IMG/VR virus record: IMGVR_UViG_2615840715_000006
Source of the DNA: an uncultured virus (IMG/VR IMGVR_UViG_2615840715_000006)
Taxonomy: Duplodnaviria > Heunggongvirae > Uroviricota > Caudoviricetes
Strand: one strand, 5' to 3'
Length of the DNA stretch: 19,997 nt
Below are positions 1,164 through 15,179 of the stretch, in pieces. Position 1 is the first letter of the stretch; each line of letters begins with the position of its first letter. The position numbers and the translations under genes were made by a program. The notes under the pieces were generated by a model. The model was given only the letters and a program-made list of their open reading frames with translations. It ran no database searches and had not been told where the DNA came from.

Positions 1164-1388
1164 TCATTCCACGCTCCGTATCCGGATCGCCTCAAACAGC
1201 CGCCTTAGCAGGTAGCCACGCGCCAGCGAGACGCCGACGAAGGCGAGGCCGATGGTCAGATGCTCCGCGACACCCGTCTCGATCCCGAACCACGGGAACA
1301 CGACGATCTGCGTGGCGATGGCCAAGAAGTAGCCGACGACAACGTTCGCCGCGGCCTCAACCATCGACATGGCCCGGCTCTGCTTCAT
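1164..1388 (-). CDS. Small two-TM membrane protein (74 aa), conserved phage hypothetical
   Basis: Two hydrophobic segments (NVVVGYFLAIATQIVVFPWFG; LTIGLAFVGVSLARGYLL) and a basic RRLFE tail. ATGA overlap with the MTase stop. Confidence 0.8.
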   Translation of the reverse strand: MKQSRAMSMVEAAANVVVGYFLAIATQIVVFPWFGIETGVAEHLTIGLAFVGVSLARGYLLRRLFEAIRIRSVE

Positions 1389-2368
1389 CGCAGGCTCTCC
1401 ATGAAAGCCATCACGAACTCTGCCGCAACCGGCGGCACGATCGCATTGCCGTAGCCCCGCAGGAGCCCCATGCGACCGGATATCCCATCAGCCAGCGGGA
1501 ATGTTCCGGGCTCAACGGGCCGCCATTTTCCATCCCGGCAGAGGAGCCAGTCCGGATCTCGCCAGACACCGTCCGTCGCATTGGTCCCGGCGGGGTCGGC
1601 GCCATCGACCAGTCCACCAGCTTCACCGTCCTGCGGCTCGCATCCGTGTTGCCCGCCGCGTTGTACGCTGACGTCGCGGGCGAACCCGCCATCGCCGTTG
1701 GCCAGCCCGCCAACCACACCTGCCGGCCGAGAAGCGCGTTGATCGGAACAGTCCGGCATTCGGATCCGTCCTTGTGATCCCGCGCCGAGGCTGTCGCCCA
1801 GCCCGCCCGGCTCCAGGGCCATGGCGCCGAAGAACAGGCGCTGGCGGATGTGCGGCGCGCCGATGCCCGCAGCCGGCAGATCGGCCGCCGCGACGGCGTA
1901 AGATGCCGCTTCCAGGTCAGCCGCCAGAGCGTCGAACCACGCCCACCCAGCCGGATCCTCAGCCGCTGTTCGAGCCGCGCCGCCAACGCGTCCGAGCACT
2001 GCCGTACTCGCGACCTGCTCGCCGAAAACGAACTCCGGGCGGCAGGCTGCGACGAGCCGCAGGAAGGCCGGGGCGAGATGGCGGTCATCGTCCTGTCCCT
2101 TGCGCTGCCCGGCCTGACTGAATGGCTGGCAGGGCGGCGAACCGGTCCAGACGGACATGTCCTCGGCCACGCCCGCGAGGCGCAGCGCGTAGGGCCAACC
2201 GCCGATCCCGGCGAAGAAATGACATTGGGTGAAGCCGCGCAGGTCGACGGGCTCCACGTCCAGGATTGACCGCCCGTCTACTTCGCCATCCGGCAGCAGC
2301 TTGGCCGAGATCAGCTCCCGCAGCCATGCGCATGCCGCGAGATCGGCAACGTTGTAGTAGACGGCCAT
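1385..2368 (-). CDS. DNA (cytosine-5) methyltransferase, catalytic (alpha) chain, 327 aa
   Basis: Motif I FFAGIGG, catalytic IV GSPPCQPFS, VI FGEQV, VIII APHIRQRLF, X LRGYGNAIVP. Start ATG 2368 overlaps the upstream TGA. No motif IX in this frame. Confidence 0.9.
   Translation of the reverse strand: MAVYYNVADLAACAWLRELISAKLLPDGEVDGRSILDVEPVDLRGFTQCHFFAGIGGWPYALRLAGVAEDMSVWTGSPPCQPFSQAGQRKGQDDDRHLAPAFLRLVAACRPEFVFGEQVASTAVLGRVGGAARTAAEDPAGWAWFDALAADLEAASYAVAAADLPAAGIGAPHIRQRLFFGAMALEPGGLGDSLGAGSQGRIRMPDCSDQRASRPAGVVGGLANGDGGFARDVSVQRGGQHGCEPQDGEAGGLVDGADPAGTNATDGVWRDPDWLLCRDGKWRPVEPGTFPLADGISGRMGLLRGYGNAIVPPVAAEFVMAFMESLR
1411..2088 (-). CDS. Nested alternative-frame ORF: putative beta subunit (motif IX and possibly TRD) of the C5 methyltransferase, 225 aa
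   Basis: Lies wholly inside the MTase gene, same strand, different frame. Carries LSPEHSRWLMGYPVAW (motif IX-like). AAGGGACAGGA precedes the ATG. Confidence 0.7.
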   Translation of the reverse strand: MTAISPRPSCGSSQPAARSSFSASRSRVRQCSDALAARLEQRLRIRLGGRGSTLWRLTWKRHLTPSRRPICRLRASARRTSASACSSAPWPWSRAGWATASARDHKDGSECRTVPINALLGRQVWLAGWPTAMAGSPATSAYNAAGNTDASRRTVKLVDWSMAPTPPGPMRRTVSGEIRTGSSAGMENGGPLSPEHSRWLMGYPVAWGSCGATAMRSCRRLRQSS

Positions 2369-3690
2369 CAGGCTGCGGCATCGGCCTTGTCGCCCAGCCG
2401 CTCGGCCTTCACCTCGTCGAAGGTCCGGCCGTCTCCGTCGAGGATCACATCGCGCCCGGTCTCGGCCTGCCAGCGTTCGACAGCCACATCGACATAGGCC
2501 GGGCTGATCTCCATCGCGAAGACACGGCGGCCATTGGCCTCGCCCGCCATGATCTGCGACCCGGAACCCGAGAACGGCTCGTAGCAGAGCCCGCCGCGGG
2601 CGACATGCTGGCGCATCGGGATGCCGAACGCGTCGAGGGGTTTCGGCGTCGGGTGGTCGGGACGCTCGTCCTTTGCGAAGGACGGCATCTCCCAAGTCGA
2701 GGGCAGCGTCTGCTCGGCGACCTTCGGCGGGCGGTTCGGCCGGCGCCAGCCCATGAAGCAGGGCTCGTGCTTCCACAGGTAATGCGAGCGGGTCAGGACG
2801 CCGCGGTCCTTCACCCAGATGATCTGCTGGTGGACGAAGGCGCCGGCCTTTTCCCAGCAGGCCTCCAGCATCGCCTGGCGGCGAGAGGCGTGCCAGCAAT
2901 ACCAGGCGGCATCGTCGGTAATCGCCTCGGCGACCGCAGCGGCGATGAAACCGTCGTAGAGGTCCGCCCCCTGCGAACTGTCGTCCCAGGTTGTGCCGTA
3001 GGACGCCGACCAGTCCTTGTTGCGGGTCGGATGGTTCGAGCCGTCGTAGTCGACAAGATACGGCGGGTCGGTTGCGAACAGGATCGCCCGCTCACCACTC
3101 ATCAGGCGGCGCACATCCTCGTGGCTGGTCGAGTCCCCGCAGAGCAGCCGGTGGTCGCCGAGGATCCACAGATCGCCTGTGCGCGAGGCCGGGTTGCGCG
3201 GCGGCTCGGGGATGGTCACCGGAGGCACCGAGCCCCCGGCGCCACCCTCTTCTTCACCGCCCTCGTCCGGATCGAAGGCCAGCAGCTTGTCGAGCTCGCC
3301 GTCGGAGAAACCGACCAGCGACAGGTCGTAGTCGTCCGCGAGCAGGTCCTGCAGTTCGGCCGACAGCAGCGCCTCGTCCCAGGTGCCGAGTTCCGTCAGC
3401 TTGTTGTCCGCGATCCGGTAGGCCCGGCGCTGCGCCTCGGTCAGGTGGCCCAGTACGATCACCGGCGCCTCGGTCAGCCCCAGCTGCGTGGCGGCCAAGA
3501 CGCGCCCGTGGCCCGCGATCAGTTCTCCGTCCTCACCGACGAGGCACGGAACGGTCCAGCCGAACTCGGCCATGCTGGCGGCGATCTTCGCGACCTGGTC
3601 GGCGCCATGCACCTTCGCGTTCTTCGCGTAGGGCTGGAGCTTGGCCAGAGGCCAGGTTTCGATCCGCTCGGGGGCGAAGCTCAGCGTCAT
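2368..3690 (-). CDS. ParB/Srx N-terminal domain fused to beta-class N4/N6 DNA methyltransferase, 440 aa
   Basis: ParB-like LIAGHGRVLAA...AYRIADNKL, then catalytic TDPPY, HPTPKP and SAM-binding EPFSGSGS in beta order. Start MTLSFAPERIE at 3690. Confidence 0.92.
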   Translation of the reverse strand: MTLSFAPERIETWPLAKLQPYAKNAKVHGADQVAKIAASMAEFGWTVPCLVGEDGELIAGHGRVLAATQLGLTEAPVIVLGHLTEAQRRAYRIADNKLTELGTWDEALLSAELQDLLADDYDLSLVGFSDGELDKLLAFDPDEGGEEEGGAGGSVPPVTIPEPPRNPASRTGDLWILGDHRLLCGDSTSHEDVRRLMSGERAILFATDPPYLVDYDGSNHPTRNKDWSASYGTTWDDSSQGADLYDGFIAAAVAEAITDDAAWYCWHASRRQAMLEACWEKAGAFVHQQIIWVKDRGVLTRSHYLWKHEPCFMGWRRPNRPPKVAEQTLPSTWEMPSFAKDERPDHPTPKPLDAFGIPMRQHVARGGLCYEPFSGSGSQIMAGEANGRRVFAMEISPAYVDVAVERWQAETGRDVILDGDGRTFDEVKAERLGDKADAAA

Positions 3691-3715
3691 GGGCGGGTGG
3701 TGTCCGTCGTGAGGT

Positions 3716-3792
3716 GGATACCGGCCGGAATCCGGACTCCGGATGCCGCGCTGGACTCCACGTGGGGTCCAGCGGCATCCGGGGTATCCGGC
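3716..3792. repeat. Long imperfect inverted repeat
   Basis: ACTCCGGATGCCG..CTGGACTCCA-CG-TGGGGTCCAG-CGGCATCCGGGGT, plus GGATACC (3716-3722) and GGTATCC (3783-3789). Confidence 0.7.
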
Positions 3793-3874
3793 CCGCAGGC
3801 CAGCGATTATTGGTGTTCGCGCGGGAGTCGGGTGGCTCTGGCTTCTGGGTGGCTTCCCAAAAATCCGGCCCTGT

Positions 3875-3930
3875 CGCTGGCGAAATATTGCGCCAAGCCC
3901 GCCAGCATACATAGTCGCCAGGAAGGAACC
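3875..3930 (-). other. Putative lambda-like cos packaging site (cosQ/cosN-like)
   Basis: Minus strand GGTTCCTTCC-TGGCGACTATG-TATGC-TGGCGGGCTTGG-CGCAATATTTCGC resembles lambda GGGTCCTTTCC...TTACG-GGGCGGCGACCT-CGCGGGTTTTCGC. Non-coding and upstream of the terminase-like gene. Confidence 0.5.
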
Positions 3931-4044
3931 ACGCACTTGGGCTGGGGGCGGACAGCGGCTCGCAAGGAAAGGATAAGCGCCTTTCCTTTCGTAACGGGTT
4001 CGCCAACGAAAGGATGTTTTTGCTCGGGTCCGTCCCGCGCGCGC

Positions 4045-4095
4045 CTCTCCCGAGTATATCCGGTTTCTAACCCGGGAGAGCCGTTTTTGTCTTAG
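4045..4095 (-). promoter_or_regulatory. Putative late promoter
   Basis: TATACT -10-like hexamer (4058-4053, minus) bracketed by the CTCTCCCG/CGGGAGAG inverted repeat, just downstream of the DUF6362-like gene. No canonical -35. Confidence 0.35.
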
Positions 4096-4137
4096 CGAAA
4101 ACTGTCCGGCGAACACTTTCCTATTGCGCCCATAGGC

Positions 4138-4566
4138 TTACGCGCCAGCGGCCAGCGCGATCACCTTGCGCTTCGACAGGCTGCGATTGAACGACCGCCT
4201 GTTGAGCGTCAGCGCGATCACCGATAGCCCGTATTGCCAGTGCTGATGCGCCGCGGAGCGTCGCAGACCGACCGCCCAGCAGATCTCCTTCCAGCGCTCG
4301 CCATGCGCTTTCATCCAGACGATCTTGCCGTCGAGCGGCTCGAGGCAGGCCGTCCAGGTGAGGGTCTCCTCCATCCGGCTGATGTCCTGCGGCGAGGGCA
4401 GCACGCGCATCGGCTTTGGCTCCTGGCCGACCTTGTCGCCGAAGCTGTGGACGATCTCGGGCCACGTGCTGAAGTATCCTTGCCGCCGCGGCTCGGGCAT
4501 CCGCTTCAGCACGAGGGCCGCCACGGCGAGCCGCTCCTCGACCATTGCCGGGGTCCAGTCCGTCAT
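4138..4566 (-). CDS. DUF6362-like protein with C-terminal HTH; possible late-gene regulator
   Basis: MTDWTPAMVEERL...QGYFSTWPE...PSPQDISRMEETLTW and HTH-like GERWKEICWAVGLRRSAAHQHW. Last gene of the early operon; ATGA overlap. Confidence 0.8.
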   Translation of the reverse strand: MTDWTPAMVEERLAVAALVLKRMPEPRRQGYFSTWPEIVHSFGDKVGQEPKPMRVLPSPQDISRMEETLTWTACLEPLDGKIVWMKAHGERWKEICWAVGLRRSAAHQHWQYGLSVIALTLNRRSFNRSLSKRKVIALAAGA

Positions 4567-4760
4567 CGCTGCACCTCCTGTTCCGAGGGGCGCGCGCCGT
4601 AAAGACGCTCGCCGAGTTGCCGTACTAGCTCCCGCTCAGGCCAAGTAAGTCTCTGGTCGTCAAGCGAAACTGCCAGAACGCCTTGCTCTTTCCAGCCTTC
4701 GCGCTTGACCTGTTCGGGGTCGCGGCGATGGCCGCCGTAGCCCTTGGGATGCCACCTCAT
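4563..4760 (-). CDS. Conserved phage hypothetical protein (65 aa)
   Basis: MRWHPKGYGGHRRDPEQVKREGW...; ATGA overlaps at both ends; GGAGG RBS. Confidence 0.8.
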   Translation of the reverse strand: MRWHPKGYGGHRRDPEQVKREGWKEQGVLAVSLDDQRLTWPERELVRQLGERLYGARPSEQEVQR

Positions 4761-5293
4761 TGGACGCCTCCCTTGGTCTCCAGCGCCCAGAACAGGATGG
4801 CGATGGCATCGGCCTCGTTGTCGTCGGCCGGGCTGAATCCGCGGGCCCGGGCAGCGTCGATCATGGCATCCTTGTTCGCGTTGCCCTTGCCGGTAGCGAA
4901 GCGCTTGATCGTGCCCACCGGGACGCCCTCGTAGGGCACGCCGCGCAGCTCTGCCCACGAGGTCAGCGTCGCCATGAGCCCGCCGTAGACATGCGCGGCG
5001 TCCGTGCCAGCGTGGCGGCGGACCTCCTCGAACCAGATCGCGGCGATGGGCCCGGAGAGCCGGTCCAGCTCGGCTAGCCAGTTCGTGAAGCGCAGATACC
5101 GCATGCCGCCGCCATCGAAGCGACCGGTACGGAAGGACACCGTGCCGGAGGTGATCAGCCCATCGGCTCCGTGCAGGGCCCACCCCGTGGTGATGCCGAG
5201 ATCGAGCGCGAGCAAGGTGCGATCGGCGCGGTGCGCGACAGGCAGATCGGGGATTGCCTCGCGAGCGCTGGTGGCGAGAGTCATGTCAGCCAT
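4757..5293 (-). CDS. RuvC-like Holliday junction resolvase (RNase H fold), 178 aa
   Basis: LLALDLGITTGW, WFEEV, IKRFATGKGNANK, DDNEADAIAI give the RuvC acidic tetrad. GAGGAG RBS before ATG 5293. Confidence 0.85.
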   Translation of the reverse strand: MADMTLATSAREAIPDLPVAHRADRTLLALDLGITTGWALHGADGLITSGTVSFRTGRFDGGGMRYLRFTNWLAELDRLSGPIAAIWFEEVRRHAGTDAAHVYGGLMATLTSWAELRGVPYEGVPVGTIKRFATGKGNANKDAMIDAARARGFSPADDNEADAIAILFWALETKGGVQ

Positions 5294-5330
5294 GGGTGGT
5301 CTCCTCTTCTGGTTGGCTGCTCGGGTGGAA

Positions 5331-5374
5331 GACGACGGCGGCCTGGTGCTTGGCGGTACGGGGCCGCCGTCGTC
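5331..5374. repeat. Perfect 13-bp inverted repeat upstream of the RuvC-like gene
   Basis: GACGACGGCGGCC (5331-5343) / GGCCGCCGTCGTC (5362-5374), 18-nt loop. Confidence 0.75.
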
Positions 5375-5432
5375 GGATCGGGTGGTTCGGGCGAGGACGG
5401 GCCACGCGCGCGAAACCCCTGGGGGTGGGCGT

Positions 5433-5738
5433 GGGAGAACCCGCCTGCGGCGTTCTCCCCCACCCCCGTAGGGGGTGGTTTCTCCCCCCAAACTGGAAGT
5501 CTGCATCAACCCACTGACAGAAAATGGGTTTTCCAGTTTGGATGGGTCACTTTCAGCATTTCCGGCCGAAACTGGTTGCAGCGTAGTCTTTGCGGTTCGA
5601 GCGCAATTCTGCAGGGGCAGTTTCGGAAGCGGGCCGAAACTGGCCACAACGGACGTGTGCGGGGCGGCGCGAAACGACGGCGAGGCAGTTTCGGAAAGGC
5701 CCCGCATCTGGTTCAAACTGGCCCCTGCGCAATTCTGC
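5433..5738. repeat. Iteron/hairpin cluster; candidate replication origin
   Basis: Seven AAACTG/CAGTTT cores (5490, 5534, 5569, 5618, 5637, 5686, 5715). GCGCAATTCTGC twice (5601, 5727). Hairpins at 5433-5459 and 5460-5478. Directly downstream of the primase-AAA gene. Confidence 0.6.
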
Positions 5739-5760
5739 GCGGAGCGATATGCGGGGGCGA

Positions 5761-8052
5761 TCATGGCCGCTCCCCCTCCGGATAGACCCAGACATTCGGG
5801 TTCTCGACCTCAAGGAGCGCCCCGGTCTGTGGCGATTTGTAATGGGTGGGCAGCACAGCGACGCTGGCGGGGGTGACCTCGCCGGTCGCCGGATCGACCT
5901 CCTCGCCGCCCGTGGGCATGACCATTCCCTCGACGCAGAGGTACCCGAAGCGCGAACGCGACGGCCCGAGGCCATAGGGGGCGCCGTCGCGGATGAACTT
6001 GATGGCGCCCTTGGTCGCCTGCACCGCGATCCGGTCGCGGATCGAATCCTTACCGCCCAGACCGGCCTTGTTCTCGAAGGCCTCGGCGAACTGGTTGATG
6101 GTGTAGAGCCGCCCCTCGACCGCCTCGTCGAGCAGGAGGGAAAGGATCACGTCCCGCTTGCGATCACGCTCCGCGTCGTATTTGGCGCCGACCTCCGCAC
6201 GCACCAACCTCTCGTTCATGGGATTGATCTCGGCCCATGCGCCATCCAGCTTGTCGACGAGCTTCGCTGGCAGTGCCGGCCCGTTCCGGAGCTCGATTTC
6301 CAACCGCCTCTGGGTAGAGTCCTCCTCGGGTCGGTGCAGGATCAAACCGGTGGTGTAGAAGCCCCGGAGCGCGCTGGCGCCGGATAGCGCAAGGAACGGA
6401 TCCTCCTTCACCTGGTGCTTGGAGAGCTTCTTGGTGTGGTGAACGAGGATCACGCCGCACTCGGGATTGACGTGGTCGCGCAGCACCTCGACCCGGTCCT
6501 TGAGGAAGAACATCATGGCGGCGTTGTCGTTTTCGCCACCGCCATCAGGGCCGCCATCGAAGAGGTTGCGGATCGGGTCGATGCAGAGGATGTCGAGTGG
6601 TTCGTCGGGGAACGCGGCCCTGATTGCCTCGGCCACGCGGGCGCTGCCCTCGGCATCGAGCAGCATCCGCAGTTTCGGCGTAACGATAAGGTTGTCGCGC
6701 GCGGCGGCGATCAGCTCGGGCTGGAGACCGATCTGCTGCATGCGCTCTCGCAGGTAGTGGTACTGGATCTCGGCCTGCAGATAGAAGATCCGGAGTGGCC
6801 GAGGCGGGGTGAAGCCGAGGAAGGGCACGCCCGCCGCCATGTGCACGAGCAAGGCGATCAGAAGATCGCTCTTGCCGACCTTCGGCGCGCCGCCCAGCAC
6901 CAGGAGCCCGCTTGGCGTCAGCACGCGCGGGCCGATGATGTCGTCCGGCATCGGGCTCGTGTCGTCAAGGAGCGCGCCCAGAGTGAAGGTCGGCAAGTCC
7001 GTCTGCGTGGGCGCTGCGCTGTCGAGGCGGATCAGCGGCGGCCCGTGCCGCTTGATGTGCAGCTCCCAGAGGCGGTTGGTCTCGCGCTTCAGCCGGTCGA
7101 GTGGCCAGGACGGGCGCAGCATCGCGGCGTTGTAGCCGCAGATCGCCGTCCAGCCCTCGTCCATCGACATCCGGCCCTCGTGGACCAGCCGCAGGAAATA
7201 GCCGATGGCGGCCGAGGCGCCCTCGAAGCGGGACCAGTCGTCCGTGCCGCCCTCGCGAACGGGCGTCACCAGCACGTCGTCGATTGCAGGTTTCTCGCGG
7301 GGCTCCGCCGTGGTCATGCCGACGCCTGCCATGGGCGGCATGTCGGCGACGCGCTCGGCCATTTCGGCGAGATCGACCTCGAGCTCGGTCGCCTCGCGGA
7401 TCTGCACGAGCCGGGTCAGCCCGCCCTTATGATAGACGGTGCCGGGCACGCGGATTGGCTGGTGGGCCGAGCGGAAATGGGTGTCGCCGCCGACCTTGAG
7501 CGCGATCTCGCCGCGCAGTTCGCACAGCCGGTCGAGATCCAGGCCCTCCGCGGGCTCGGTCAGCTTCCACCAGACATGGAGCTTGGTCGCGCCTTCGCGC
7601 GTGCGCCCGCCGCTCTCGACGATCAGCGTTGGCCGCCCGAGATGGTGGAGGAGATGATCGAGCTTGGCCGGGATGTCGCCGGAGTCGAGATCGACCACGA
7701 GGCTCTGCATCTGCAGGACATCCGCGGCGCGGGCCTGGCCCGTTTCCGCGACCGTGCCGGGAATGACGTAGACCGCGGCGCCCTCGCGCGATGCCCAGCC
7801 GGCGAAGGTGGCGAGCTTCTCCGGCGCCGTAGCATCCGCCTCGATCCAGATGTTGTGCGGCCGGCCGTCCTTGCCCTGACCCTTGTCGACGAAGCCACGG
7901 ACCGGGATTAGCCCCTCGGAGTAGCCGAAGACGACATCGACGAAGCAGGCGATCTGGTCCGCGTCCGGTTCGACCGCGAAGGGATCGTGCAGCGGCGCCG
8001 CGTCGTTGAAATCCCGCCAGGGATTGAAGTGGATGATGTTGTCGTCGCTCAT
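5761..8052 (-). CDS. Primase (RepB'/AEP-like)-AAA_25 ATPase/helicase fusion, 763 aa
   Basis: N-terminal VVDLD, ESGG..KLHVWW, IRVPGTVYHK primase motifs. Walker A GGAPKVGKS, Walker B LCIDP, LVHHTKK, SGASAL. ATGA overlap at the start. Confidence 0.88.
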   Translation of the reverse strand: MSDDNIIHFNPWRDFNDAAPLHDPFAVEPDADQIACFVDVVFGYSEGLIPVRGFVDKGQGKDGRPHNIWIEADATAPEKLATFAGWASREGAAVYVIPGTVAETGQARAADVLQMQSLVVDLDSGDIPAKLDHLLHHLGRPTLIVESGGRTREGATKLHVWWKLTEPAEGLDLDRLCELRGEIALKVGGDTHFRSAHQPIRVPGTVYHKGGLTRLVQIREATELEVDLAEMAERVADMPPMAGVGMTTAEPREKPAIDDVLVTPVREGGTDDWSRFEGASAAIGYFLRLVHEGRMSMDEGWTAICGYNAAMLRPSWPLDRLKRETNRLWELHIKRHGPPLIRLDSAAPTQTDLPTFTLGALLDDTSPMPDDIIGPRVLTPSGLLVLGGAPKVGKSDLLIALLVHMAAGVPFLGFTPPRPLRIFYLQAEIQYHYLRERMQQIGLQPELIAAARDNLIVTPKLRMLLDAEGSARVAEAIRAAFPDEPLDILCIDPIRNLFDGGPDGGGENDNAAMMFFLKDRVEVLRDHVNPECGVILVHHTKKLSKHQVKEDPFLALSGASALRGFYTTGLILHRPEEDSTQRRLEIELRNGPALPAKLVDKLDGAWAEINPMNERLVRAEVGAKYDAERDRKRDVILSLLLDEAVEGRLYTINQFAEAFENKAGLGGKDSIRDRIAVQATKGAIKFIRDGAPYGLGPSRSRFGYLCVEGMVMPTGGEEVDPATGEVTPASVAVLPTHYKSPQTGALLEVENPNVWVYPEGERP

Positions 8053-8807
8053 GCCGGCAGGCTCCAGCAGCGCTCGGCCCATGGGCAGAACCGGCATTCG
8101 AAGAAGTCGCGGTTCTGGGCCACGCGCGGCAGCAACTCGCCCGCATCGGTGGCGCGCAGGATTCGCACGCCGCGGTCGGACATGCGCTGCGCGAGATCGG
8201 CGTCGAATGGCACGAGCTCGTGGTGCAGCTCGGCCGTGTCCTTGTTGATCGCGGTGAAGAGCGCCGGGTTGGCCGAGATGCCCGGCACCGTCGCTTCCAT
8301 GTAGGCCTGGTAGAGCGCGATCTGCGCCGCGTAGACGGGCTTGGCGACGGTCACGCCCTTGGCCACCGTCTCGCGCCAGTTCTTCGCGTTCATGGTCTTG
8401 CACTCCCAGAGCGCGGGAGTGCGCAGCCCCAGCGCCGCCGGGGCCTCGGCAACGATCCCGTCGACGTGGCCGCGGATCCGCCCGCCCGCGACGGAGAAGC
8501 CGAACTGGCCGCCGTCACGTTTCTGGGTGACCAGATCGAGCCCCGCCGTCCGCAGCCAGCGGATGGCGAGATCCTCGAGTTCATGCCCGATCGCGAAGAT
8601 CCGGAGCGACCGGCCGGAGAAGTCGTGGCCTTCGTCCTTCGGTGCGCCCGCAAACTCGAACTGCAGCGCGCGCTCGCAGGCATGGCCGAGCCGGGACGCG
8701 CCGAGATAGTCGCGCGGCGGAGTTGCCGCGCGCTCTGCCTCGAGCGCGGCATCCACGGCGGCGTTGATGCGCTCCGCGATGCCAGGGCGGTGGTTGTAGT
8801 CCAGCAT
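8049..8807 (-). CDS. PD-(D/E)XK exonuclease, Cas4/RecB-like with probable Fe-S cysteines
   Basis: YLGASRLGHAC, GHELE, GHVDG, WECKT, QIALY, and C-terminal CRFC..AERC. Confidence 0.85.
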   Translation of the reverse strand: MLDYNHRPGIAERINAAVDAALEAERAATPPRDYLGASRLGHACERALQFEFAGAPKDEGHDFSGRSLRIFAIGHELEDLAIRWLRTAGLDLVTQKRDGGQFGFSVAGGRIRGHVDGIVAEAPAALGLRTPALWECKTMNAKNWRETVAKGVTVAKPVYAAQIALYQAYMEATVPGISANPALFTAINKDTAELHHELVPFDADLAQRMSDRGVRILRATDAGELLPRVAQNRDFFECRFCPWAERCWSLPA

Positions 8808-9241
8808 CAGAACGGGATCCCCGACTCGGCGGCGATCTCCGCCATCTCCGCGCGGAACGCCTCGACGGTTGTGACGATCAGCCGGTGCATGTCATTCTGA
8901 GTCAGCTGCCCCAGCGGTCGGTCCCAGCCGATGCGCTCCATCTCGGGGGCGAGCGCGCGCATCACGGCGGGCAGCGCCTGGGTTTCTTCTTCGGTGAAAT
9001 CGACCATGCTCAGTCCTCTCTTCGCTTTTCGGGTGAAGGCCGTCTGGCAGCCCATGGAGCAGAACCAGCGGCGGGTTTGGGTGCGGGTTGGGCGCGTCCG
9101 GTGGGGATCGAACCAGCCGAAGCCGCGGGTGCGCGCGGTGCAGACGGCGCAGAGGAGCGGGCGCGGATGCCAGAGGCGATCAATGCCCGGTCGATCCGGA
9201 GCCGCTTTGGGCGGGGATGGGACTTGCGCGACATGGCTCAC
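8807..9241 (-). CDS. DUF6511-like protein with N-terminal Zn finger (144 aa)
   Basis: GTG start overlapping the helicase TGA; CAVC...FCSMGC; acidic ..ESGIPF tail. A possible internal start at 9007 has a GAGGA RBS. Confidence 0.75.
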   Translation of the reverse strand: MSHVAQVPSPPKAAPDRPGIDRLWHPRPLLCAVCTARTRGFGWFDPHRTRPTRTQTRRWFCSMGCQTAFTRKAKRGLSMVDFTEEETQALPAVMRALAPEMERIGWDRPLGQLTQNDMHRLIVTTVEAFRAEMAEIAAESGIPF

Positions 9242-10905
9242 GCCGCCCTCCGCTCGGGCGCGGCCGACATCACGAGCCGGCGAATGTCGCGCCGGTTGAA
9301 CTGGAAGGTGATCAGCGCCGACGCCCGGTAGCGGGTGAGCCCGTAATCCTGCCGCTGCTCGGGCGAGAGGTATTGCAGCTGCTTCTCGGTCGGCGTCTGC
9401 GTCAGCCAGCGCTTCGACTTGAAGGCGCTCTCGTCGCTCTCGTGTTCGTTCAGCCAATCGTCGGCCTGCGCCAGACAGACGGTACGCTCGCCCACGCCGA
9501 GGAGGCGCGTCCGCTCATTCTTGCCACCGCCTACGGCATGCCAGCGCCCCTCGAGGTAGAACACGCCGCCCCAGGCGTTGAACCCGCTCGCCATGAGCGC
9601 GGACTCGTCGTCGAACAGGTCCTCCCAGGCGAAGCTGGAGCGCTTGAGGAGGTCGATCTCGGACATGACCACGCTGTCGAGCGGCGGTACCCCGTCGCGG
9701 AGGAACTCGAATCCGCAGATCGGGCATTGGCGGGCAGCGAGCGGGACCGTCGCCTCGCATTCCGGGCAGGTCTTCGTCGGCGCGTCGCACGGTGTGGGAT
9801 CGCGCCCGTCGAGATCGACGTCCTGCTCGAGCGTGCCGTGGGTCAGGCTCGAGATCCCGAAATCCAGAACGATGCAGTCGGTCTTGACGATGCCCGGATG
9901 CTCGGCGGGATCGACCGTGCGCAGGCCGCGCCCGACCATCTGGATCATGGTGGACTTGCAGGAGCTGGGGCGCAACAGCACCACGCAGGAGGTCGGCGGG
10001 TGGTCCCAACCCTCGGTCAGCACCGCCACGTTGACGACGACGTGGATCTCGCCAGCGGCATAGGCTGCGAGGATCCGACGGCGCGTCTCGGAGCCGAGAT
10101 CGCCGTGGATGACGCCGGCGGGGATCCCGTCACTGTTGAATGCCTCGGCGACGTTTTCCGCGTGGGCGACTGTCGAGCAGAAGACCACGGTCTGCCGGTC
10201 GCCGGCCTTCTCGCGCCAGTGCCGGATGACCTCGGCCGTGATCGGCGCGCGGTTCATGATCTCTGCCACCGCGCCCATGTCGTAGTCGGACGCGGTCTTG
10301 CGCACGGCACGAAGTTTCTCCTGCACGCCCACATCGATCACGAAGGTGCGCGGGGCTACGAGGTGACCAGAGGCGATCAGCTCGGCCAGCGTGACCTGGT
10401 CGCCGACGTTGTCGAAGACAGCGCGCAGCCCTTTCCGGTCGCCGCGGTTGGGCGTCGCCGTGACGCCGAAGATGCGCGCTTCGGGATTGGCATCGCGCAC
10501 CCGGTCGATGATCCGACGATAGCTGTCGGCCACCGCGTGATGCGCCTCGTCGATCACCAGCAGATCGAGCGTGGGCATCGCCTTCAGGCTCGACGAGCGC
10601 GACAGCGTCGGCGCCATGGCAAAGGTGACCTGGCCGGCCCACGACTTCGAGCCGGCATCCACCACGGACGTGGTCACCTCCGGATTGACCCGGGCGAACT
10701 TCGCGCGGTTCTGGCCGGTCAGCTCGTCGCGATGGGCGAGAACGCAGGCCTTGGCCTCCGTCTCCTCCACCAGCTTGCCGGTGACCGCGGAGAGCATGAT
10801 GGTCTTGCCCGCGCCCGTGGGCGCGACACCGAGCGTGTTGCCGTGCTTCGAGAGCGCAGCGAGGCTGCGCTCCACAAAGACTTTCTGGCGGGGACGAAGC
10901 CGCAT
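9238..10905 (-). CDS. SF2 DEAD/DEAH-box helicase with Zn ribbon (YejH/RadD-like), 555 aa
   Basis: APTGAGKT, DEAHH, TATP, LTEGWD, QMVGRGLR, CPEC...CPIC. Confidence 0.93.
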   Translation of the reverse strand: MRLRPRQKVFVERSLAALSKHGNTLGVAPTGAGKTIMLSAVTGKLVEETEAKACVLAHRDELTGQNRAKFARVNPEVTTSVVDAGSKSWAGQVTFAMAPTLSRSSSLKAMPTLDLLVIDEAHHAVADSYRRIIDRVRDANPEARIFGVTATPNRGDRKGLRAVFDNVGDQVTLAELIASGHLVAPRTFVIDVGVQEKLRAVRKTASDYDMGAVAEIMNRAPITAEVIRHWREKAGDRQTVVFCSTVAHAENVAEAFNSDGIPAGVIHGDLGSETRRRILAAYAAGEIHVVVNVAVLTEGWDHPPTSCVVLLRPSSCKSTMIQMVGRGLRTVDPAEHPGIVKTDCIVLDFGISSLTHGTLEQDVDLDGRDPTPCDAPTKTCPECEATVPLAARQCPICGFEFLRDGVPPLDSVVMSEIDLLKRSSFAWEDLFDDESALMASGFNAWGGVFYLEGRWHAVGGGKNERTRLLGVGERTVCLAQADDWLNEHESDESAFKSKRWLTQTPTEKQLQYLSPEQRQDYGLTRYRASALITFQFNRRDIRRLVMSAAPERRAA

Positions 10906-10915
10906 CGGACGCCCC

Positions 10916-11518
10916 TCACTGCGCCCAAGCCGGACGCCCCGGCGCCGCCGGAGCAGTCGGCTGCGATGCCGCCGCCGGCTGCGGCGCGGGCTGCGATGGC
11001 GGCTGGTAGCCATGGCCGGCCGTGCCCATGACCTGCGCGTAGTCGCGATGGTCTGGCGTGACCGCGGCACGGATCTCGTTCTTGTCCTCGCCCATCGCAT
11101 CGGAGCCGATGTCGATGCGCGCGACGAACTCCAGCCCGTCGAGGTCGGCGAAGCCGTTGATCCGACGTGCGGCCTGCGCCTCGGGCGAGGTGTCCTTGTC
11201 CGAGATCCCGCGCGCCGAGTTGAGCATGCCGCGGACGAGGCTGCGGCCCATGTTGGCCCAGTCCGGCCCCTTGGGGCTGTGCAGCCCGATCAGCGTGAAG
11301 ATCTTGCGCCGGGCATAGGGGCCCTCGAGCACGGTGAACTCGCCGTTGAGATACACCGCACCGGTGGAGCCGCGGGTGGCATAGCCCCCGGTCCAGCCCT
11401 GCGACGGGTCGTCGAAGCCGCCGGGGCGGATGGTCAGGCGCACCTTGGCGAGCGTCCCCTTGGGGATGAGGTTCGTGTTGGACTGCGCGTCGTTGAAATC
11501 GTTCCAGAGACCGGTCAT
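10916..11518 (-). CDS. Probable phage ssDNA-binding protein (OB-fold, DUF669-like), 200 aa
   Basis: DFNDA..LIPKG N-terminus, beta-rich core, Pro/Ala-rich tail ending RPAWAQ. Follows the Sak4-like ATPase. AAAGGA RBS. Confidence 0.65.
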   Translation of the reverse strand: MTGLWNDFNDAQSNTNLIPKGTLAKVRLTIRPGGFDDPSQGWTGGYATRGSTGAVYLNGEFTVLEGPYARRKIFTLIGLHSPKGPDWANMGRSLVRGMLNSARGISDKDTSPEAQAARRINGFADLDGLEFVARIDIGSDAMGEDKNEIRAAVTPDHRDYAQVMGTAGHGYQPPSQPAPQPAAASQPTAPAAPGRPAWAQ

Positions 11519-11532
11519 GGCGTGGGGTCCTT

Positions 11533-12411
11533 TCAGTTGGTGGGATCGGATTGAGGGGTCGCGGCGGGCGCCGGGATGCGCGGCGCGTCGGTGACGAGCG
11601 GGCGCGCATCGATCGGCAGCGGTTGGCGGATCTTCTCGATGAGCCGGCCGAGATGCGGCGGCTCGAGCAGGTCGAGGCGTCCGGAGCGGTCCTTGGCCGG
11701 ATAGCCCCAGCGGTTCTGCGTGTGGCAGACGAAGACCCGCTGCGGCACGCCATTGTCGTCGGGCAGCGAAGTGAGCGTCAGCACCTCGTCGACGATGCCC
11801 GGCAGTTCCAGCCCGGTCTTGGACCCATCGATCTGCGGGACGAAGACCTTGCGATTGAAGTCGTCGACCTTCTCGTCGAGGATCCCGACGAAGATCACGT
11901 TCTTGGCGCGCGTGTGCTGGAGATGCGTGAGCCAGGCGATCATCTCGCGGCCATGCAGCCCGTAGGCCCCACGGACGTCCGGCTTGCCGGTCTTGTCCGA
12001 ATGCGCCTCCGGCTGGCCCTTGCACCACTGGAAGCAGAGCCGCCCCGCGACGGTGATCGAGTCGATGAAGACCGTGTCGTACTTCTCCAGCACCTGCGGA
12101 TCGCCGTACTTCTGGCAGATTGCCTGGTAGTGGTCCTCGCTGTAGGGCTGGTCCTTGCGCAGCGCCGGGTTCGGACCGCCAATGAACACAGCGAAGTCGC
12201 GACATTCCCGCCAGGTGCGCGGGCGGATCGTGTCGATCGCCAGCCCCTCAATGGCGAGATCGCCGGCCTCGAGGTCGAAAAACAGCGAGGTGGTCGAATT
12301 GAGTGTGCGCAGAAGCGTGGTCTTGCCGATGCCCGGAGGTCCAAAGATGGCGGCCTTCACGCCGCGCACCTCGGCCAGCCGCTCGTCGGCGGTGATGATC
12401 GGGAGGCTCAT
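11533..12411 (-). CDS. AAA_24 / Sak4-like ATPase, 292 aa
   Basis: GPPGIGKT, FDLEAG, VFIDSIT, C-terminal AKDRSG. ATGA overlap. Confidence 0.85.
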   Translation of the reverse strand: MSLPIITADERLAEVRGVKAAIFGPPGIGKTTLLRTLNSTTSLFFDLEAGDLAIEGLAIDTIRPRTWRECRDFAVFIGGPNPALRKDQPYSEDHYQAICQKYGDPQVLEKYDTVFIDSITVAGRLCFQWCKGQPEAHSDKTGKPDVRGAYGLHGREMIAWLTHLQHTRAKNVIFVGILDEKVDDFNRKVFVPQIDGSKTGLELPGIVDEVLTLTSLPDDNGVPQRVFVCHTQNRWGYPAKDRSGRLDLLEPPHLGRLIEKIRQPLPIDARPLVTDAPRIPAPAATPQSDPTN

Positions 12412-12896
12412 GCGTCGCCTCCCTGCGGCCGGATCTCGACCTTCAACGCGCCGGTCTTCACGGTGCGCGCGGGCTCGAAGCCCTGGCGGATCGCATCGGG
12501 CCAGGCCGCGTATTTGCGCTCGGGCACCTTGAAGGCGATGTCGACATACTCGGCCGGATCGTCCCCGACGGCGCGGATCCGCTCGACCATCGCAGCCAGC
12601 TGGGACTGGTCCCACTCGACGCGTTTCGGCAGATCCGCGACCACGGTGAAATCGCCGTCGTCGAAGCGGACCGTGCCGGTATCCTTGGCCTGCGCCTGCC
12701 GCTCCTCGGCGGCGCGGGTGGCGTAGCGGACGGTCAGTGCGGCATCGAGCCGGGTCTTCGCAGCCGTGTCGCGTTTCAGGCGCTCGTCGATCTCGCGCTG
12801 TAGGATGGCCAGCAGTTCGACGGGCAGCGCGGCGATCTCCTGCGGGCTGAGGCCCGGCAGGTCATCGGGCGTGGGTGTGTTCTCTGGATAGGGCAT
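12408..12896 (-). CDS. Conserved phage hypothetical protein (162 aa)
   Basis: Helical N-terminus plus DLPKRVEWDQ motif; coupled to the ATPase gene. Confidence 0.8.
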   Translation of the reverse strand: MPYPENTPTPDDLPGLSPQEIAALPVELLAILQREIDERLKRDTAAKTRLDAALTVRYATRAAEERQAQAKDTGTVRFDDGDFTVVADLPKRVEWDQSQLAAMVERIRAVGDDPAEYVDIAFKVPERKYAAWPDAIRQGFEPARTVKTGALKVEIRPQGGDA

Positions 12897-12923
12897 TGGG
12901 GTCTCCGGGATGGGGGATGGGGA

Positions 12924-13286
12924 TCAGGCGGCCTCGAGCAGGCGCATCGAGAGCGCCGCGCCGGACGGGCCGGGCTTCGGACGGGCGACAGCGATGTAGG
13001 CGAAGGCGTCGGGGCCGAGCCGCGACTGCACGAGGTGGACGAGGTTCTGCTCGGCCGCGCGCCGGGCAGCAGCCGCCACCAGTTGCAGCGTACGTTGGCG
13101 ATCCGCCGGCAGCTTCGAGATGACCGACGTGGCATCGACGGCGAGGAACCCGCGGTGATAGACCAGCGCCTCGCCGGGTTCGGCCTGCGCGATCCAGGCG
13201 GCGAGCCCGATCTCGTCGAGTGTCGGCCCGTTTACGCCGTGCAGCGGCACGACCTCGGCCTCGGTGATGGGCGACAGGTGTCCCAT
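12924..13286 (-). CDS. Conserved phage hypothetical protein (120 aa)
   Basis: PGEALVYHRGFLAVD...LVHLVQSRLG..FAYIAVAR; start overlaps the upstream TGA. Confidence 0.8.
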   Translation of the reverse strand: MGHLSPITEAEVVPLHGVNGPTLDEIGLAAWIAQAEPGEALVYHRGFLAVDATSVISKLPADRQRTLQLVAAAARRAAEQNLVHLVQSRLGPDAFAYIAVARPKPGPSGAALSMRLLEAA

Positions 13287-13498
13287 CAGGCCGCCCCTGC
13301 GCGCGGCTGGGTGTCCATGGTGTGCTGGAGCTGGTCGCGCTCGAAGGCGACGATGTCCTCGAGGCGGTAGACGACCCGTCCGCCGATCTTCATGTAGGCC
13401 GGGCCTTCACCCGCCCACCGCCAGCGCTCCAGCGTGCGATGCGAGATCGTCCAGCGCCGGGCGAGTTCCTTCTGGTTCAGGCAATGCTTCTGCTGCAT
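13286..13498 (-). CDS. AlpA/excisionase-like HTH protein (70 aa)
   Basis: LNQKELARRWTISHRTLERWRWAGEGPAYMKIGGRVVYRLEDIVAFE; GGAGAGAG RBS. Confidence 0.88.
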   Translation of the reverse strand: MQQKHCLNQKELARRWTISHRTLERWRWAGEGPAYMKIGGRVVYRLEDIVAFERDQLQHTMDTQPRAGAA

Positions 13499-13539
13499 CG
13501 GCTCTCTCCGTTTGCGTGTGCTTCGGAGAGAGATTGCGA

Positions 13540-13700
13540 AATCCCGCTATGGGATGTCGTCAGGATCGCAGGGGGATGCGGAGGGGGATGGATATGGCCT
13601 TGCAGGACAGGCTTGGGTGGCTCGCTGGGGGATCGTCACCCCCCTCCATCCCCCAGCCGATCCCACACCGAGCGCGATCAGGAACCGCGCATGGGGGATG
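13540..13700. promoter_or_regulatory. Array of GGGGGAT(G) motifs upstream of the early operon
   Basis: GGGGGATG at 13571, 13583, 13693; GGGGGATC at 13627; inverted CATCCCCC at 13647. A further copy lies at 12912 in the next intergenic gap. Confidence 0.55.
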
Positions 13701-13709
13701 GCAGGCGAG

Positions 13710-14393
13710 TCAGTCGATGTTGAGACGGTAGCCGCCGCGGCGGTCGGAACGGATCAGCTGCCGCCAGTCCTTCTGCGATTTGAAGACGTCGGCCATGCGC
13801 AGGCTCTTCGAACCGGCCGAGGACAGGATGGCCTTGCCGCTCTGCAAGGGCTCGCCCCGCTGTGCGGCCTCGTGCAGGGCGCGGACGACCTGAGCCTGGA
13901 TCGGGCCGAGCCGGAAGCGGTAGCCGTTGCAGCGCACCTCCTGGTAATCGGCCGAGGCGATGAAGGTGCTCTCCTCCATCGCCGAGCCGCCGGAGGAGAA
14001 TCCGGACTGGAGCTCGAAACGATCGCGTTCCTCGCGCCGTAGCAGCAGATCGCCGATCATCACGAAGACCGGCTTGGCTTCGCCGTAGAGCGACGCATAG
14101 TCCGCGCGTGGCGTACGAAACTCGCTGACATGGAGCTCGCCGCAGCGGAACAGCTGGAAGACATCGCAGGCGTGCAGGTCGAGCAGCCCGCTGAAGGGCT
14201 TCTGCTCCCACGGCACGCGGAACCGCTCGCCGTCCTGGCCCTCCTCGTAGTCGCCGAATTCGACCGGCTCGCCGAAGACGCGGACCGACAGCCGGAGCTT
14301 GTCGTTCTCGGCAAGATAGACGAGGTCCGTCTCGGAGATCCGCCAGCGCTCGAGCACTTCGGGAAGCGTGAAATACAGCTTGTCGATGTGCAC
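13710..14393 (-). CDS. Phage regulator-like protein with N-terminal HTH and C-terminal winged HTH (227 aa)
   Basis: GTG start with GGAGGG RBS; YFTLPEVLERW; C-terminal LGPIQAQVVRAL...SDRRGGYRL resembling an OmpR-type wing. Divergent from the repressor. Confidence 0.8.
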   Translation of the reverse strand: MHIDKLYFTLPEVLERWRISETDLVYLAENDKLRLSVRVFGEPVEFGDYEEGQDGERFRVPWEQKPFSGLLDLHACDVFQLFRCGELHVSEFRTPRADYASLYGEAKPVFVMIGDLLLRREERDRFELQSGFSSGGSAMEESTFIASADYQEVRCNGYRFRLGPIQAQVVRALHEAAQRGEPLQSGKAILSSAGSKSLRMADVFKSQKDWRQLIRSDRRGGYRLNID

Positions 14394-14419
14394 GCGCCCC
14401 TCCGATTCCCATGTCCGAT

Positions 14420-14434
14420 GTTTACCTTATGTTC
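14420..14434 (-). promoter_or_regulatory. Alphaproteobacterial LexA-box-like site
   Basis: Minus strand GAAC-ATAAGGT-AAAC, one mismatch to GAAC-N7-GAAC. Overlaps a candidate -10 (TAAGAA 14437-14432) 17 bp from TTGATC (14460-14455). Confidence 0.55.
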
Positions 14435-14501
14435 TTATTCACTTGACGAGCTCCGATCAATCCGATTTTATCCTATTTCATCCACAGATGGGTGGGGAAA
14501 C

Positions 14502-15179
14502 ATGAACGAGCATCACACGCTTGCTGACCGTCTCAGGGCCCGTGCCAACCAGCTCGGCCTCAGCCCCGCCCACGTCGCCGAGATGGCCGGCGTGAACCGA
14601 TCCTTCGTCTACGACATCCTGCGCGGACGATCATCCCGTCCTGGCATCGACCGGCTGGCAGAGGTCGCCCGCGTGCTGAAGGTCGACCGCGACTGGCTGA
14701 TCCACGGGATCGGCGATGTCGAGGGCACGCCGCCCTTCATCGAGAACCCGGACGAAGCCTTCGTCTCGATCGCGCATGCGAGCCCGCGCCCCTCGATGGG
14801 CGGCGGCGCTGTTGTCGAGGAGCATGAGGATCCCGCCGGCCGCGCCTACCACTTCCGCCGGTCCTGGATCCGCCACAGCCTGAAGGCCAGCCCGTCCCAG
14901 CTGCGGATCATGCATGTGGAAGGCGACAGCATGGCGCCCACGCTGCTCGACGGCGACACGGTGCTTGTCGACATGGCGCGCCGCGCGCCGAACCCGCCCG
15001 GCATCTTCGTGCTGGACGACGGTATGGGGCTGGTGGCCAAGCGGCTCGAGCACATCCCGAACAGCGACCCGCCGGCGGTCCGAGTCATCTCGGACAACGG
15101 CTTCTACAGCCCCTACGAGCGAACGGCCGACGAGATCCACATCGTCGGCCGCATCCGTTGGTTCGCACGGGAGATCTGA
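14502..15179 (+). CDS. CI-like repressor: XRE HTH plus S24 autopeptidase, 225 aa
   Basis: HTH LSPAHVAEMAGVNRSFVYDILRG; SMGGG cleavage region; catalytic VEGDSM and VAKRL; IVGRI C-terminus. Confidence 0.93.
   Translation: MNEHHTLADRLRARANQLGLSPAHVAEMAGVNRSFVYDILRGRSSRPGIDRLAEVARVLKVDRDWLIHGIGDVEGTPPFIENPDEAFVSIAHASPRPSMGGGAVVEEHEDPAGRAYHFRRSWIRHSLKASPSQLRIMHVEGDSMAPTLLDGDTVLVDMARRAPNPPGIFVLDDGMGLVAKRLEHIPNSDPPAVRVISDNGFYSPYERTADEIHIVGRIRWFAREI

Follow-up and report, generated by a model that had tools for sequence, protein, structure and literature searches.

A locus in the DNA of an uncultured virus of the Caudoviricetes (IMG/VR record IMGVR_UViG_2615840715_000006; the whole stretch of 19,997 nucleotides that was analysed is called the window below) raises the question whether one methyltransferase gene is read in two frames to yield two parts of the same enzyme. 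The original prediction, made from the letters of this stretch, had proposed a main frame with the cytosine C5 methyltransferase motifs I, IV, VI, VIII, and X and a second frame on the same strand, lying inside the first, which ends in the missing motif IX. Both frames run on the minus strand, a point absent from that prediction, and all coordinates of their features given here refer to this strand. The reading preferred by us, to which a probability of about 0.78 is assigned, is that of a two-chain C5 methyltransferase encoded by one DNA stretch in two frames, with a catalytic chain alpha and a chain beta which carries the target recognition domain (TRD) together with motif IX.

The outer open reading frame (ORF) is listed as 1385-2899, and the ATG at 2368 was taken as its sensible start. 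The alpha coding sequence thus delimited (P0001; 1385..2368) has 327 codons and a stop and comprises the large catalytic domain with motifs I-VIII, a linker, and motif X. C5 methyltransferases are defined by motifs I (FxGxG), IV (the cysteine in PCQ), VI (an ENV-like glutamate), VIII (QxRxR), and X (GNxV). All five are present in alpha as had been claimed, with EQV instead of ENV in motif VI, and inspection of the alpha frame for motifs yielded nothing resembling motif IX. In an alignment of 27 diverse alpha sequences (alignment A2) the key positions of these motifs are invariant. Motif I, FFAGIGGW, for binding of S-adenosylmethionine (residues 51-58; 2195..2218), has invariant F51, F52, G54, I55, and W58, and motif IV, SPPCQPFS, with the catalytic cysteine (residues 77-84; 2117..2140), has invariant S77, P79, C80, Q81, P82, and S84. 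The variant motif VI, FGEQV (residues 115-119; 2012..2026), keeps G116, E117, and Q118, and motif VIII, HIRQRLFF (residues 173-180; 1829..1852), keeps H173, R175, and R177 on nucleotides which also encode part of beta, namely its conserved module at the N-terminus. In motif X, GYGNAIVPPVA (residues 305-315; 1424..1456), G307 and N308 are invariant. The Pfam family PF00145 recognises alpha with 49.1 bits (gathering cut-off 22) at residues 71-181, corresponding to profile positions 62-159 of 324, so that the Pfam coverage is limited to motifs IV-VIII. TIGR00675 gives 34.1 bits, which is under its cut-off of 100.65, and phrog_363 of the PHROGs collection matches alpha end to end with an E value of 1.3e-71.

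Between motifs VIII and X alpha is of a different nature. Residues 1-186 are highly conserved in alignment A2, residues 187-268 are unalignable, rich in glycine, arginine, and aspartate, and variable in length, and the C-terminus is again conserved with the pattern W.D.DWL.CRDGKWRPVEPGTFPLA.G.P.RVGRLRGYGNAIVP. This linker (1565..1810) is open and not conserved and corresponds to the recognition domain of beta read out of frame. In the AlphaFold2 model of alpha residues 1-186 are confident, residues 187-273 have a predicted local distance difference test score (pLDDT) of 28-35, and the last helix, residues 312-326, is confident again with a pLDDT of 86-90. A Foldseek search with the model gave M.HhaI and M.HaeIII as top matches (E 1e-7), and VIA-align superimposed it on M.HhaI (2zcj_A) with a Z score of 14.0 and a root mean square deviation of 3.0 A over 175 of the 327 residues. 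As judged from the predicted model this match covers the large domain only, which has the fold of M.HhaI and M.HaeIII. The canonical arrangement, in which TRD and motif IX separate motif VIII from motif X within one chain, is not found in alpha. Because residues 187-268 are unconserved and of low pLDDT and a TRD with motif IX is found in the +1 frame, this part appears to be absent from the chain recognised by Pfam and to be supplied in trans.

The beta coding sequence (P0002; 1411..2088) has 225 codons and a stop, is shifted by +1 relative to alpha, and lies wholly inside it. Its N-terminal part, residues 31-81 (1846..1998), is predicted to form a helix followed by a beta-hairpin and has the pattern L..SLE.RLR...GS.LY.LTWK...TP.GR.I.RLRAS.RRTS in an alignment of beta sequences (alignment A1). 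Then follow the W-(A/P)-T units which had been pointed out before (1684..1803), namely GWATASARDHKDG at residues 96-108 (1765-1803) and GWPTAMAG at residues 128-135 (1684-1707). The motif IX claimed for the end of this frame is indeed present as LSPEHSRWLMGYPVAW at residues 192-207 (1468..1515), followed by 18 more residues and overlapping alpha residues 285-300. L200, P204, and W207 are invariant in alignment A1, and L192, P194, W199, M201, and G202 are conserved in at least 90% of the sequences. The claim that beta represents motif IX is therefore to be extended, as beta carries in addition the whole TRD, together about 200 amino acids. Throughout alignment A1 the layout is the same, with a conserved N-terminal module, GW.TP..D.KD modules in varying number with insertions and deletions between them, and a conserved end, SG..LTGS.A.M..GGQLNP.HSRWLMGYP.EWD.CA.TAM. 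The insertions and deletions fall where the alpha linker changes its length. Among beta homologues about 2 to about 8 GW.TP modules occur in tandem, about 8 being found in a protein of 440 amino acids (P0034), and the tandem modules of such long homologues may be comparable to the recognition domains which multispecific methylases of Bacillus phages have in tandem. Two PHROGs families match beta, phrog_31772 over its whole 145-position profile with an E value of 1.8e-29 and phrog_1008 with an E value of 1.1e-10.

A link of beta to the recognition part of known enzymes comes from gp70 of Mycobacterium phage ShiLan, a C5 methyltransferase of 389 amino acids encoded in one frame, which has three LLPTP..DG.GG repeats, LAPAFSEWMMGWPAGW, and then GNGVVPQQ. 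When profiles of the two chains were compared with gp70 by hhalign, alpha residues 73-190 aligned to gp70 residues 65-160 (99.2%, E 1.1e-19) and beta residues 97-209 to gp70 residues 201-352 (92.5%, E 5e-7). The latter alignment places the W-x-T repeats of beta on the LLPTP..DG.GG repeats of gp70 and motif IX of beta on LAPAFSEWMMGWPAGW. By these alignments the two chains correspond to different sections of a single canonical enzyme and complement each other. On the DNA the parts also follow one another in the canonical order, that is motifs I-VIII, TRD with motif IX, and motif X, with motif IX of beta located 11-12 codons before GNAIVP of alpha. The N-terminal helix-hairpin of beta has no counterpart in gp70, the match beginning at beta residue 97, and it overlaps motifs VII-VIII of alpha. 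These observations suggest that it may have arisen by overprinting and make it a candidate docking element.

As the window has a guanine plus cytosine (GC) content of 69% and contains 76 ORFs of at least 100 amino acids in its six frames, many of these long ORFs being spurious, an open frame alone means nothing here. Conservation was therefore examined in 163 sequences, consisting of 160 related loci retrieved from collections of viruses and of genomes, two copies from Escherichia phage K1ind2, and the window. With tblastn alpha matched all 163 and beta 161 of them, and the beta match was in the +1 frame relative to alpha in 159 of the 163, including phages of 45-55% GC. The two loci negative for beta (L145 and L146) contain a short beta visible by eye, and two others (L074 and L149) give beta in the frame of alpha, each with a single indel of 1 nucleotide which moves all three frames together. 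Among phage records tblastn yielded 211 matches for beta and 342 for alpha, and both match at the same places in phages of Escherichia, Klebsiella, Rhodobacter, Xanthomonas, and Burkholderia.

The selection acting on each frame was followed by nucleotide diversity at the three alpha codon positions in 45 distinct close homologues (from 49 full-length sequences at least 70% identical). In alpha codons 1-120 the diversity peaks at position 3 (0.18-0.41 versus 0.01-0.12), as for selection on alpha. At alpha codons 141-170, and on to codon 180 around motif VIII, it is low at all three positions, pointing to selection on both frames. Along codons 191-250 the peak is at alpha position 1, which is position 3 of beta (0.23-0.29 versus 0.002-0.08 at alpha position 3), so that beta is selected and alpha is free. 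Finally, codons 271-327 show low or alpha-like diversity (low at every position for codons 291-310), consistent with selection on alpha or on both. Alignments A1 and A2 agree in that invariant residues of both frames are encoded by the same nucleotides at alpha residues 121-190 and 265-300. Thus G51, S52, and W59 of beta share nucleotides with W144, L152, and E153 of alpha, and W199, L200, M201, and G202 of beta share nucleotides with L292 and G295 of alpha. One polypeptide cannot hold both readings, since the invariant residues of the two chains occupy the same nucleotides. Of the roughly 680 nucleotides of dual coding assumed originally, an overlap of 678 nucleotides is confirmed, and dual selection is limited to two stretches of about 70 and about 35 codons. 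Some residues look, from the sequences, like passengers of the opposite frame, namely the beta tail ATAMRSC, which is GYGNAIVP of alpha read at +1, and a part of EPGTFPLADG of alpha, which is motif IX of beta read at -1.

A further line of evidence is the avoidance of stop codons. For this 134 distinct loci (143 before removal of duplicates) were chosen which had a complete alpha hit and a +1 beta. The beta frame was free of stops in 133 of 133 loci in both the mid and the TRD region, the +2 frame being open there in 2 and 5 of 133. In the converse test the openness of alpha across the beta-selected stretch was examined with synonymous resampling of the beta codons and with no conditioning on alpha continuity. 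The alpha frame proved to be open in 127 of 127 distinct loci, with 2.3 stops expected and a mean chance of openness of 0.088, and it was open in 45 of 45 loci with a GC content below 0.58. The third frame was open across the same stretch in 5 of the 127. Stop avoidance and conservation of both frames in homologues, which had been proposed as a check, are thus observed, and frequent interruption of the nested frame in homologues, which would have spoken against a gene, is not. By this pattern of substitutions and stops beta is a real gene under purifying selection, nested in alpha. Two products must be made, because both readings are conserved on the same nucleotides and alpha stays open through a stretch in which it is not conserved.

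The predicted stretch resembling a ribosome binding site in front of the beta ATG was recovered as the Shine-Dalgarno-like AAGGGACAGGA (2091..2101), which ends 2 nucleotides before the ATG (2086-2088). This ATG is kept in 44 of the 45 distinct close homologues. Across the 134 loci, 69 have an ATG at the position of the beta start, and a Shine-Dalgarno-like 4-mer is found upstream in 87% of these as compared to 13% at other in-frame codons. In all 134 the beta domain is preceded by a start codon, and in 128 there is one with a Shine-Dalgarno-like 4-mer ahead of it.

From these data the following sequence of events can be proposed. Alpha would be read through to motif X and would consist of motifs I-VIII, a disordered linker of about 80 residues, and a short conserved C-terminal segment, the linker being kept free of stops only so that ribosomes get to motif X. 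Beta would be started internally at the ATG at 2088 with its Shine-Dalgarno sequence, and would supply the helix-hairpin, the W-x-T-P repeat TRD, and motif IX. By analogy with M.EcoHK31I, M.AquI, and complementing fragments of monomeric enzymes the two chains would then join non-covalently to the usual two-lobed enzyme, and both would be needed for sequence-specific formation of 5-methylcytosine in phage or host DNA. We infer this start, the assembly, and the joint requirement of the chains. The likely role would be protection from restriction, exerted within a translationally coupled methylase operon of a prophage early module.

Several points weigh against this proposal of a two-chain enzyme. 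The link of beta to TRD and motif IX consists of two matches, one from hhalign (92.5%) and one, for a sister family, from BLASTP. The AlphaFold2 model of beta, calculated with a 27-sequence alignment, is poor, with a mean pLDDT of 56; the helix at residues 27-47 and the strands at residues 55-63 and 69-77 reach a pLDDT of 75-82. A wide fold search with this model by VIA-align gave a best Z score of 3.3, which is noise. Searches with beta gave no meaningful match in Pfam, whether the protein itself or each of the 27 members of the alignment was used (E up to 10), nor in NCBIfam, nor in the PDB with the sequence or a profile as query, and the ESM Atlas returned viral clusters named 'hypothetical protein' only. 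The frame of beta is also depleted of stops ahead of its ATG, at 2088-2300 of the window (minus strand), corresponding to alpha residues 31-93; it is open there in 121 of 134 loci versus a chance expectation of 0.46, while for loci of low GC the figures are 32 of 33 versus 0.28. In many other lineages ATGs occur at alpha residues 31 and 37. Owing to this depletion and to these ATGs the true start of beta is uncertain, and beta could have a longer isoform or be entered by ribosomes in another way. The loci used for the upstream region and for stop avoidance had been preselected for a continuous alpha hit, and the counts overstate the independent support because the loci are phylogenetically related; the contrast between the open frame and the control frame is clear nevertheless. 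Alpha alone could have a relaxed, non-specific activity, and translation of beta, binding of the chains to each other, and methylation of DNA by either of them are inferred as well.

Of the other explanations, the one which survives best is that both chains are made with no obligate enzyme resulting, beta being a free DNA-binding or specificity factor common to several catalytic chains, or a regulator, and alpha acting alone or being inactive. This would fit with the wide variation in the number of beta modules and with the presence of at least two further intact nested loci in the same genome, L163 (G000:C20:14595-18095) and L164 (G000:C20:82904-86407), which make cross-talk between chains conceivable. 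These belong to another C5 subfamily, with ENV and GNGVVP, and have a +1 nested ORF with WPTP repeats and LNPLFVEALMGWPTGWT. As in the window, a ParB-like/N6_N4 methylase gene is located immediately upstream of each. The beta of this sister subfamily matches the beta profile with 96.9% and an E value of 1.9e-10 and gp70 by BLASTP with an E value of 5e-5; tblastn of the L163 beta against phages gave no match. On the other hand, alpha and beta are inherited together on the same DNA in every locus examined, alpha is predicted by its model to have no folded recognition domain, and according to the accessible text of PMC3404938 the small domain of a canonical enzyme includes both motif IX and the TRD. 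An arrangement with no obligate enzyme is thus considered unlikely.

Considerably less probable still is programmed recoding, in which the ribosome would shift by +1 after motif VIII into the TRD and motif IX and by -1 before motif X, yielding a single canonical chain. Such a chain would mirror gp70, with the exactly canonical order on the DNA and motif X in frame 0 just 11-12 codons past motif IX. But at alpha 121-190 and 265-300 the two frames have their conserved residues on shared nucleotides, so that one chain could not include both, alpha is open through the entire TRD in all 127 loci, which recoding does not require, and beta has its own conserved Shine-Dalgarno sequence and ATG. Finally, high GC content and the codon usage of alpha might have left the nested frame open although it codes for nothing, as the 69% GC of the window, its 76 long ORFs, and the beta tail ATAMRSC dictated by GYGNAIVP of alpha might suggest. 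This is hardly credible and already contradicted by the evidence, as the beta frame is kept in phages of 45-55% GC, the wobble is in the phase of beta, beta matches thousands of called proteins with E values of 1e-29 to 1e-95, and it is homologous to a TRD with motif IX that is encoded in frame.

The surroundings of the pair are those of a prophage. Upstream lies an N6/N4 DNA methylase gene (2371-4116, minus strand; PF01555), the N-terminus of which is ParB-like by eye only. Its stop overlaps the alpha start in the junction TGATG (2366-2370, minus strand), and the alpha stop overlaps the start of a DUF7220 gene (1164-1388) in the junction ATGA (1385-1388, minus strand). These overlapping junctions suggest a translationally coupled operon on the minus strand. 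Downstream of it a DUF3489 gene (528-1109) is found on the plus strand. Further genes encode an AAA_25 protein of 880 amino acids resembling a primase-helicase (5764-8403), a DUF6511 protein (8810-9457), a ResIII/SNF2 helicase (9241-11100), and an AAA_24 protein (11536-12615), all on the minus strand, and a CI-like repressor with helix-turn-helix and Peptidase_S24 domains on the plus strand (14130-15176). The region 4121-15176 represents an early or replication module of a prophage. Among the neighbouring genes in the window none was recognised as a nuclease partner. The designation of the enzyme as 'orphan' in the original prediction is plausible in view of this location in the early module of a prophage and of the lack of a recognised nuclease.

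The spread of the nested arrangement is wide. The beta profile matches 27,173 cluster representatives (50% identity) at E values up to 0.001 and 7,572 at E values up to 1e-30. Among the best 120 matches of near-beta length 119 have no Pfam domain, and a search for one-chain forms fused to beta found PF00145 in none of the 31 matches of at least 500 amino acids. In the only carrier of PF00145 among the best 120 (P0145) a frameshift has fused residues 1-100 of alpha to beta, motifs VI, VIII, and X being absent, and the two loci with beta in the frame of alpha (L074 and L149) were rejected as same-frame fusions, their single 1-nucleotide indels representing an error or a pseudogene. Two other loci (L005 and L104) have a premature stop in alpha with beta intact, and two (L021 and L091) have frameshifts in alpha. 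All of these frameshifted or stopped relatives (P0145, L005, L021, L074, L091, L104, and L149) are regarded as sequencing errors or decaying copies. In the genome with L163 and L164 a further sister copy is split by a transposase insertion into an N-terminal half (L166) and a C-terminal half (L169), the two together at G000:C20:145467-150137. It may be, with chances somewhat short of even, that these genes represent a very large and hitherto undescribed class of C5 methyltransferases, found in phages and prophages, with TRD and motif IX always nested in the +1 frame. This class would occur in phages of Proteobacteria and Firmicutes, comprise at least two catalytic subfamilies, and have a disposable linker in its catalytic chain.

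If this is true, few conserved pairs of genes overlapping on the same strand in prokaryotic viruses would be longer or more widespread, and the varying W-x-T-P modules could make beta a swappable or multi-specific specificity subunit. The pair offers a clean natural case of overlapping genes, in which about 200 codons are read in two frames of one strand, the division of labour between the frames can be made out, and one-frame relatives are at hand for comparison. A separable pair of a catalytic and a recognition chain with modular repeats would also be of interest for targeted methylation and for the escape of phages from restriction. Consequences for annotation are of a practical kind, as pipelines name the outer chain only and drop beta or call it 'hypothetical protein'. 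Clones of phage C5 methylases of this type would then lack the recognition subunit, and the enzymes would be taken to be inactive or to have an unusual TRD and unusual motifs IX and X. In the accessible part of a study on pairs of TET and C5 methylase in phages (PMC8256090), the methylase clades III-VI are reported to differ markedly in the TRD and in motifs IX and X; these clades might be candidates for nested two-chain forms annotated as alpha only.

The expectation that standard annotation would miss the nested gene holds often, but not for Escherichia phage K1ind2 (53% GC) and Paenibacillus phage Rani (44.6% GC). The GenBank record of K1ind2 annotates the outer gene and a nested 'putative Mte8-like protein', both named 'DNA methyltransferase' in RefSeq, and in Rani the nested ORF is annotated as 'g50 Internal gene'. 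Like beta of the window, to which they are homologous, K1ind2 ORF28 ('Mte8-like protein') and Rani gp51 ('g50 Internal gene') are nested at +1 in a C5 methylase gene. Phage genome papers (PMC5582158, PMC6070908, PMC5056774) list the genes, and the portions available of these papers do not discuss the nesting and its meaning. No description or explanation of the nested ORF was found in open-access full-text literature, subscription journals and REBASE lying outside this scope. Already known are therefore the nested ORF itself, from some GenBank and RefSeq records and from PHROGs, and the principle of nesting, from M.EcoHK31I.

With gp70 of phage ShiLan, the one-frame relative, the pair of the window shares the motif set and the type of TRD, with [LW]PTP..D..GG repeats, L.P.F.EWMMG.P.GW, and GN.VVP. 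In contrast to the pair, gp70 is a single chain read in one frame, without the N-terminal helix-hairpin of beta and without the junk linker of alpha. Natural two-chain C5 methyltransferases are known in M.EcoHK31I and M.AquI, and fragment complementation of monomeric enzymes is a further precedent, as far as can be taken from the accessible text of PMC2836561 and PMC3404938. M.AquI is split in the variable region, with motifs I-VIII on one chain and the recognition part and motif IX on the other (PMC3404938, accessible text). Its small chain also has motif X, whereas motif X of the window is in alpha and beta ends 18 residues past motif IX. The genes of the window further differ from those of M.AquI in being fully nested in different frames.

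M.EcoHK31I, to which the original prediction had likened the locus, belongs to a restriction-modification system; in this it is unlike the locus of the window, which lies in a prophage with no nuclease recognised. The parallel stands in so far as M.EcoHK31I, too, has a beta chain with motif IX whose gene lies within that of alpha in a different frame of one strand. M.EcoHK31I (recognising YGGCCR) likewise has motifs I-VIII and X in its alpha chain, and both its chains are needed for activity (PMC2836561, PMC3404938, accessible text). The parallel ends at the TRD, which the alpha chain of M.EcoHK31I keeps, its beta carrying only motif IX according to the same parts of these papers (PMC2836561, PMC3404938). 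Because the TRD is in beta here and in alpha there, the split differs. As described, in the window it is beta which comprises the whole TRD along with motif IX and, at its N-terminus, an extra module, the place of the TRD in alpha being taken by a linker predicted to be disordered. New as compared to M.EcoHK31I are thus the provision of a whole small domain in trans, a linker which is the TRD read out of frame, and the far larger scale on which the arrangement occurs.

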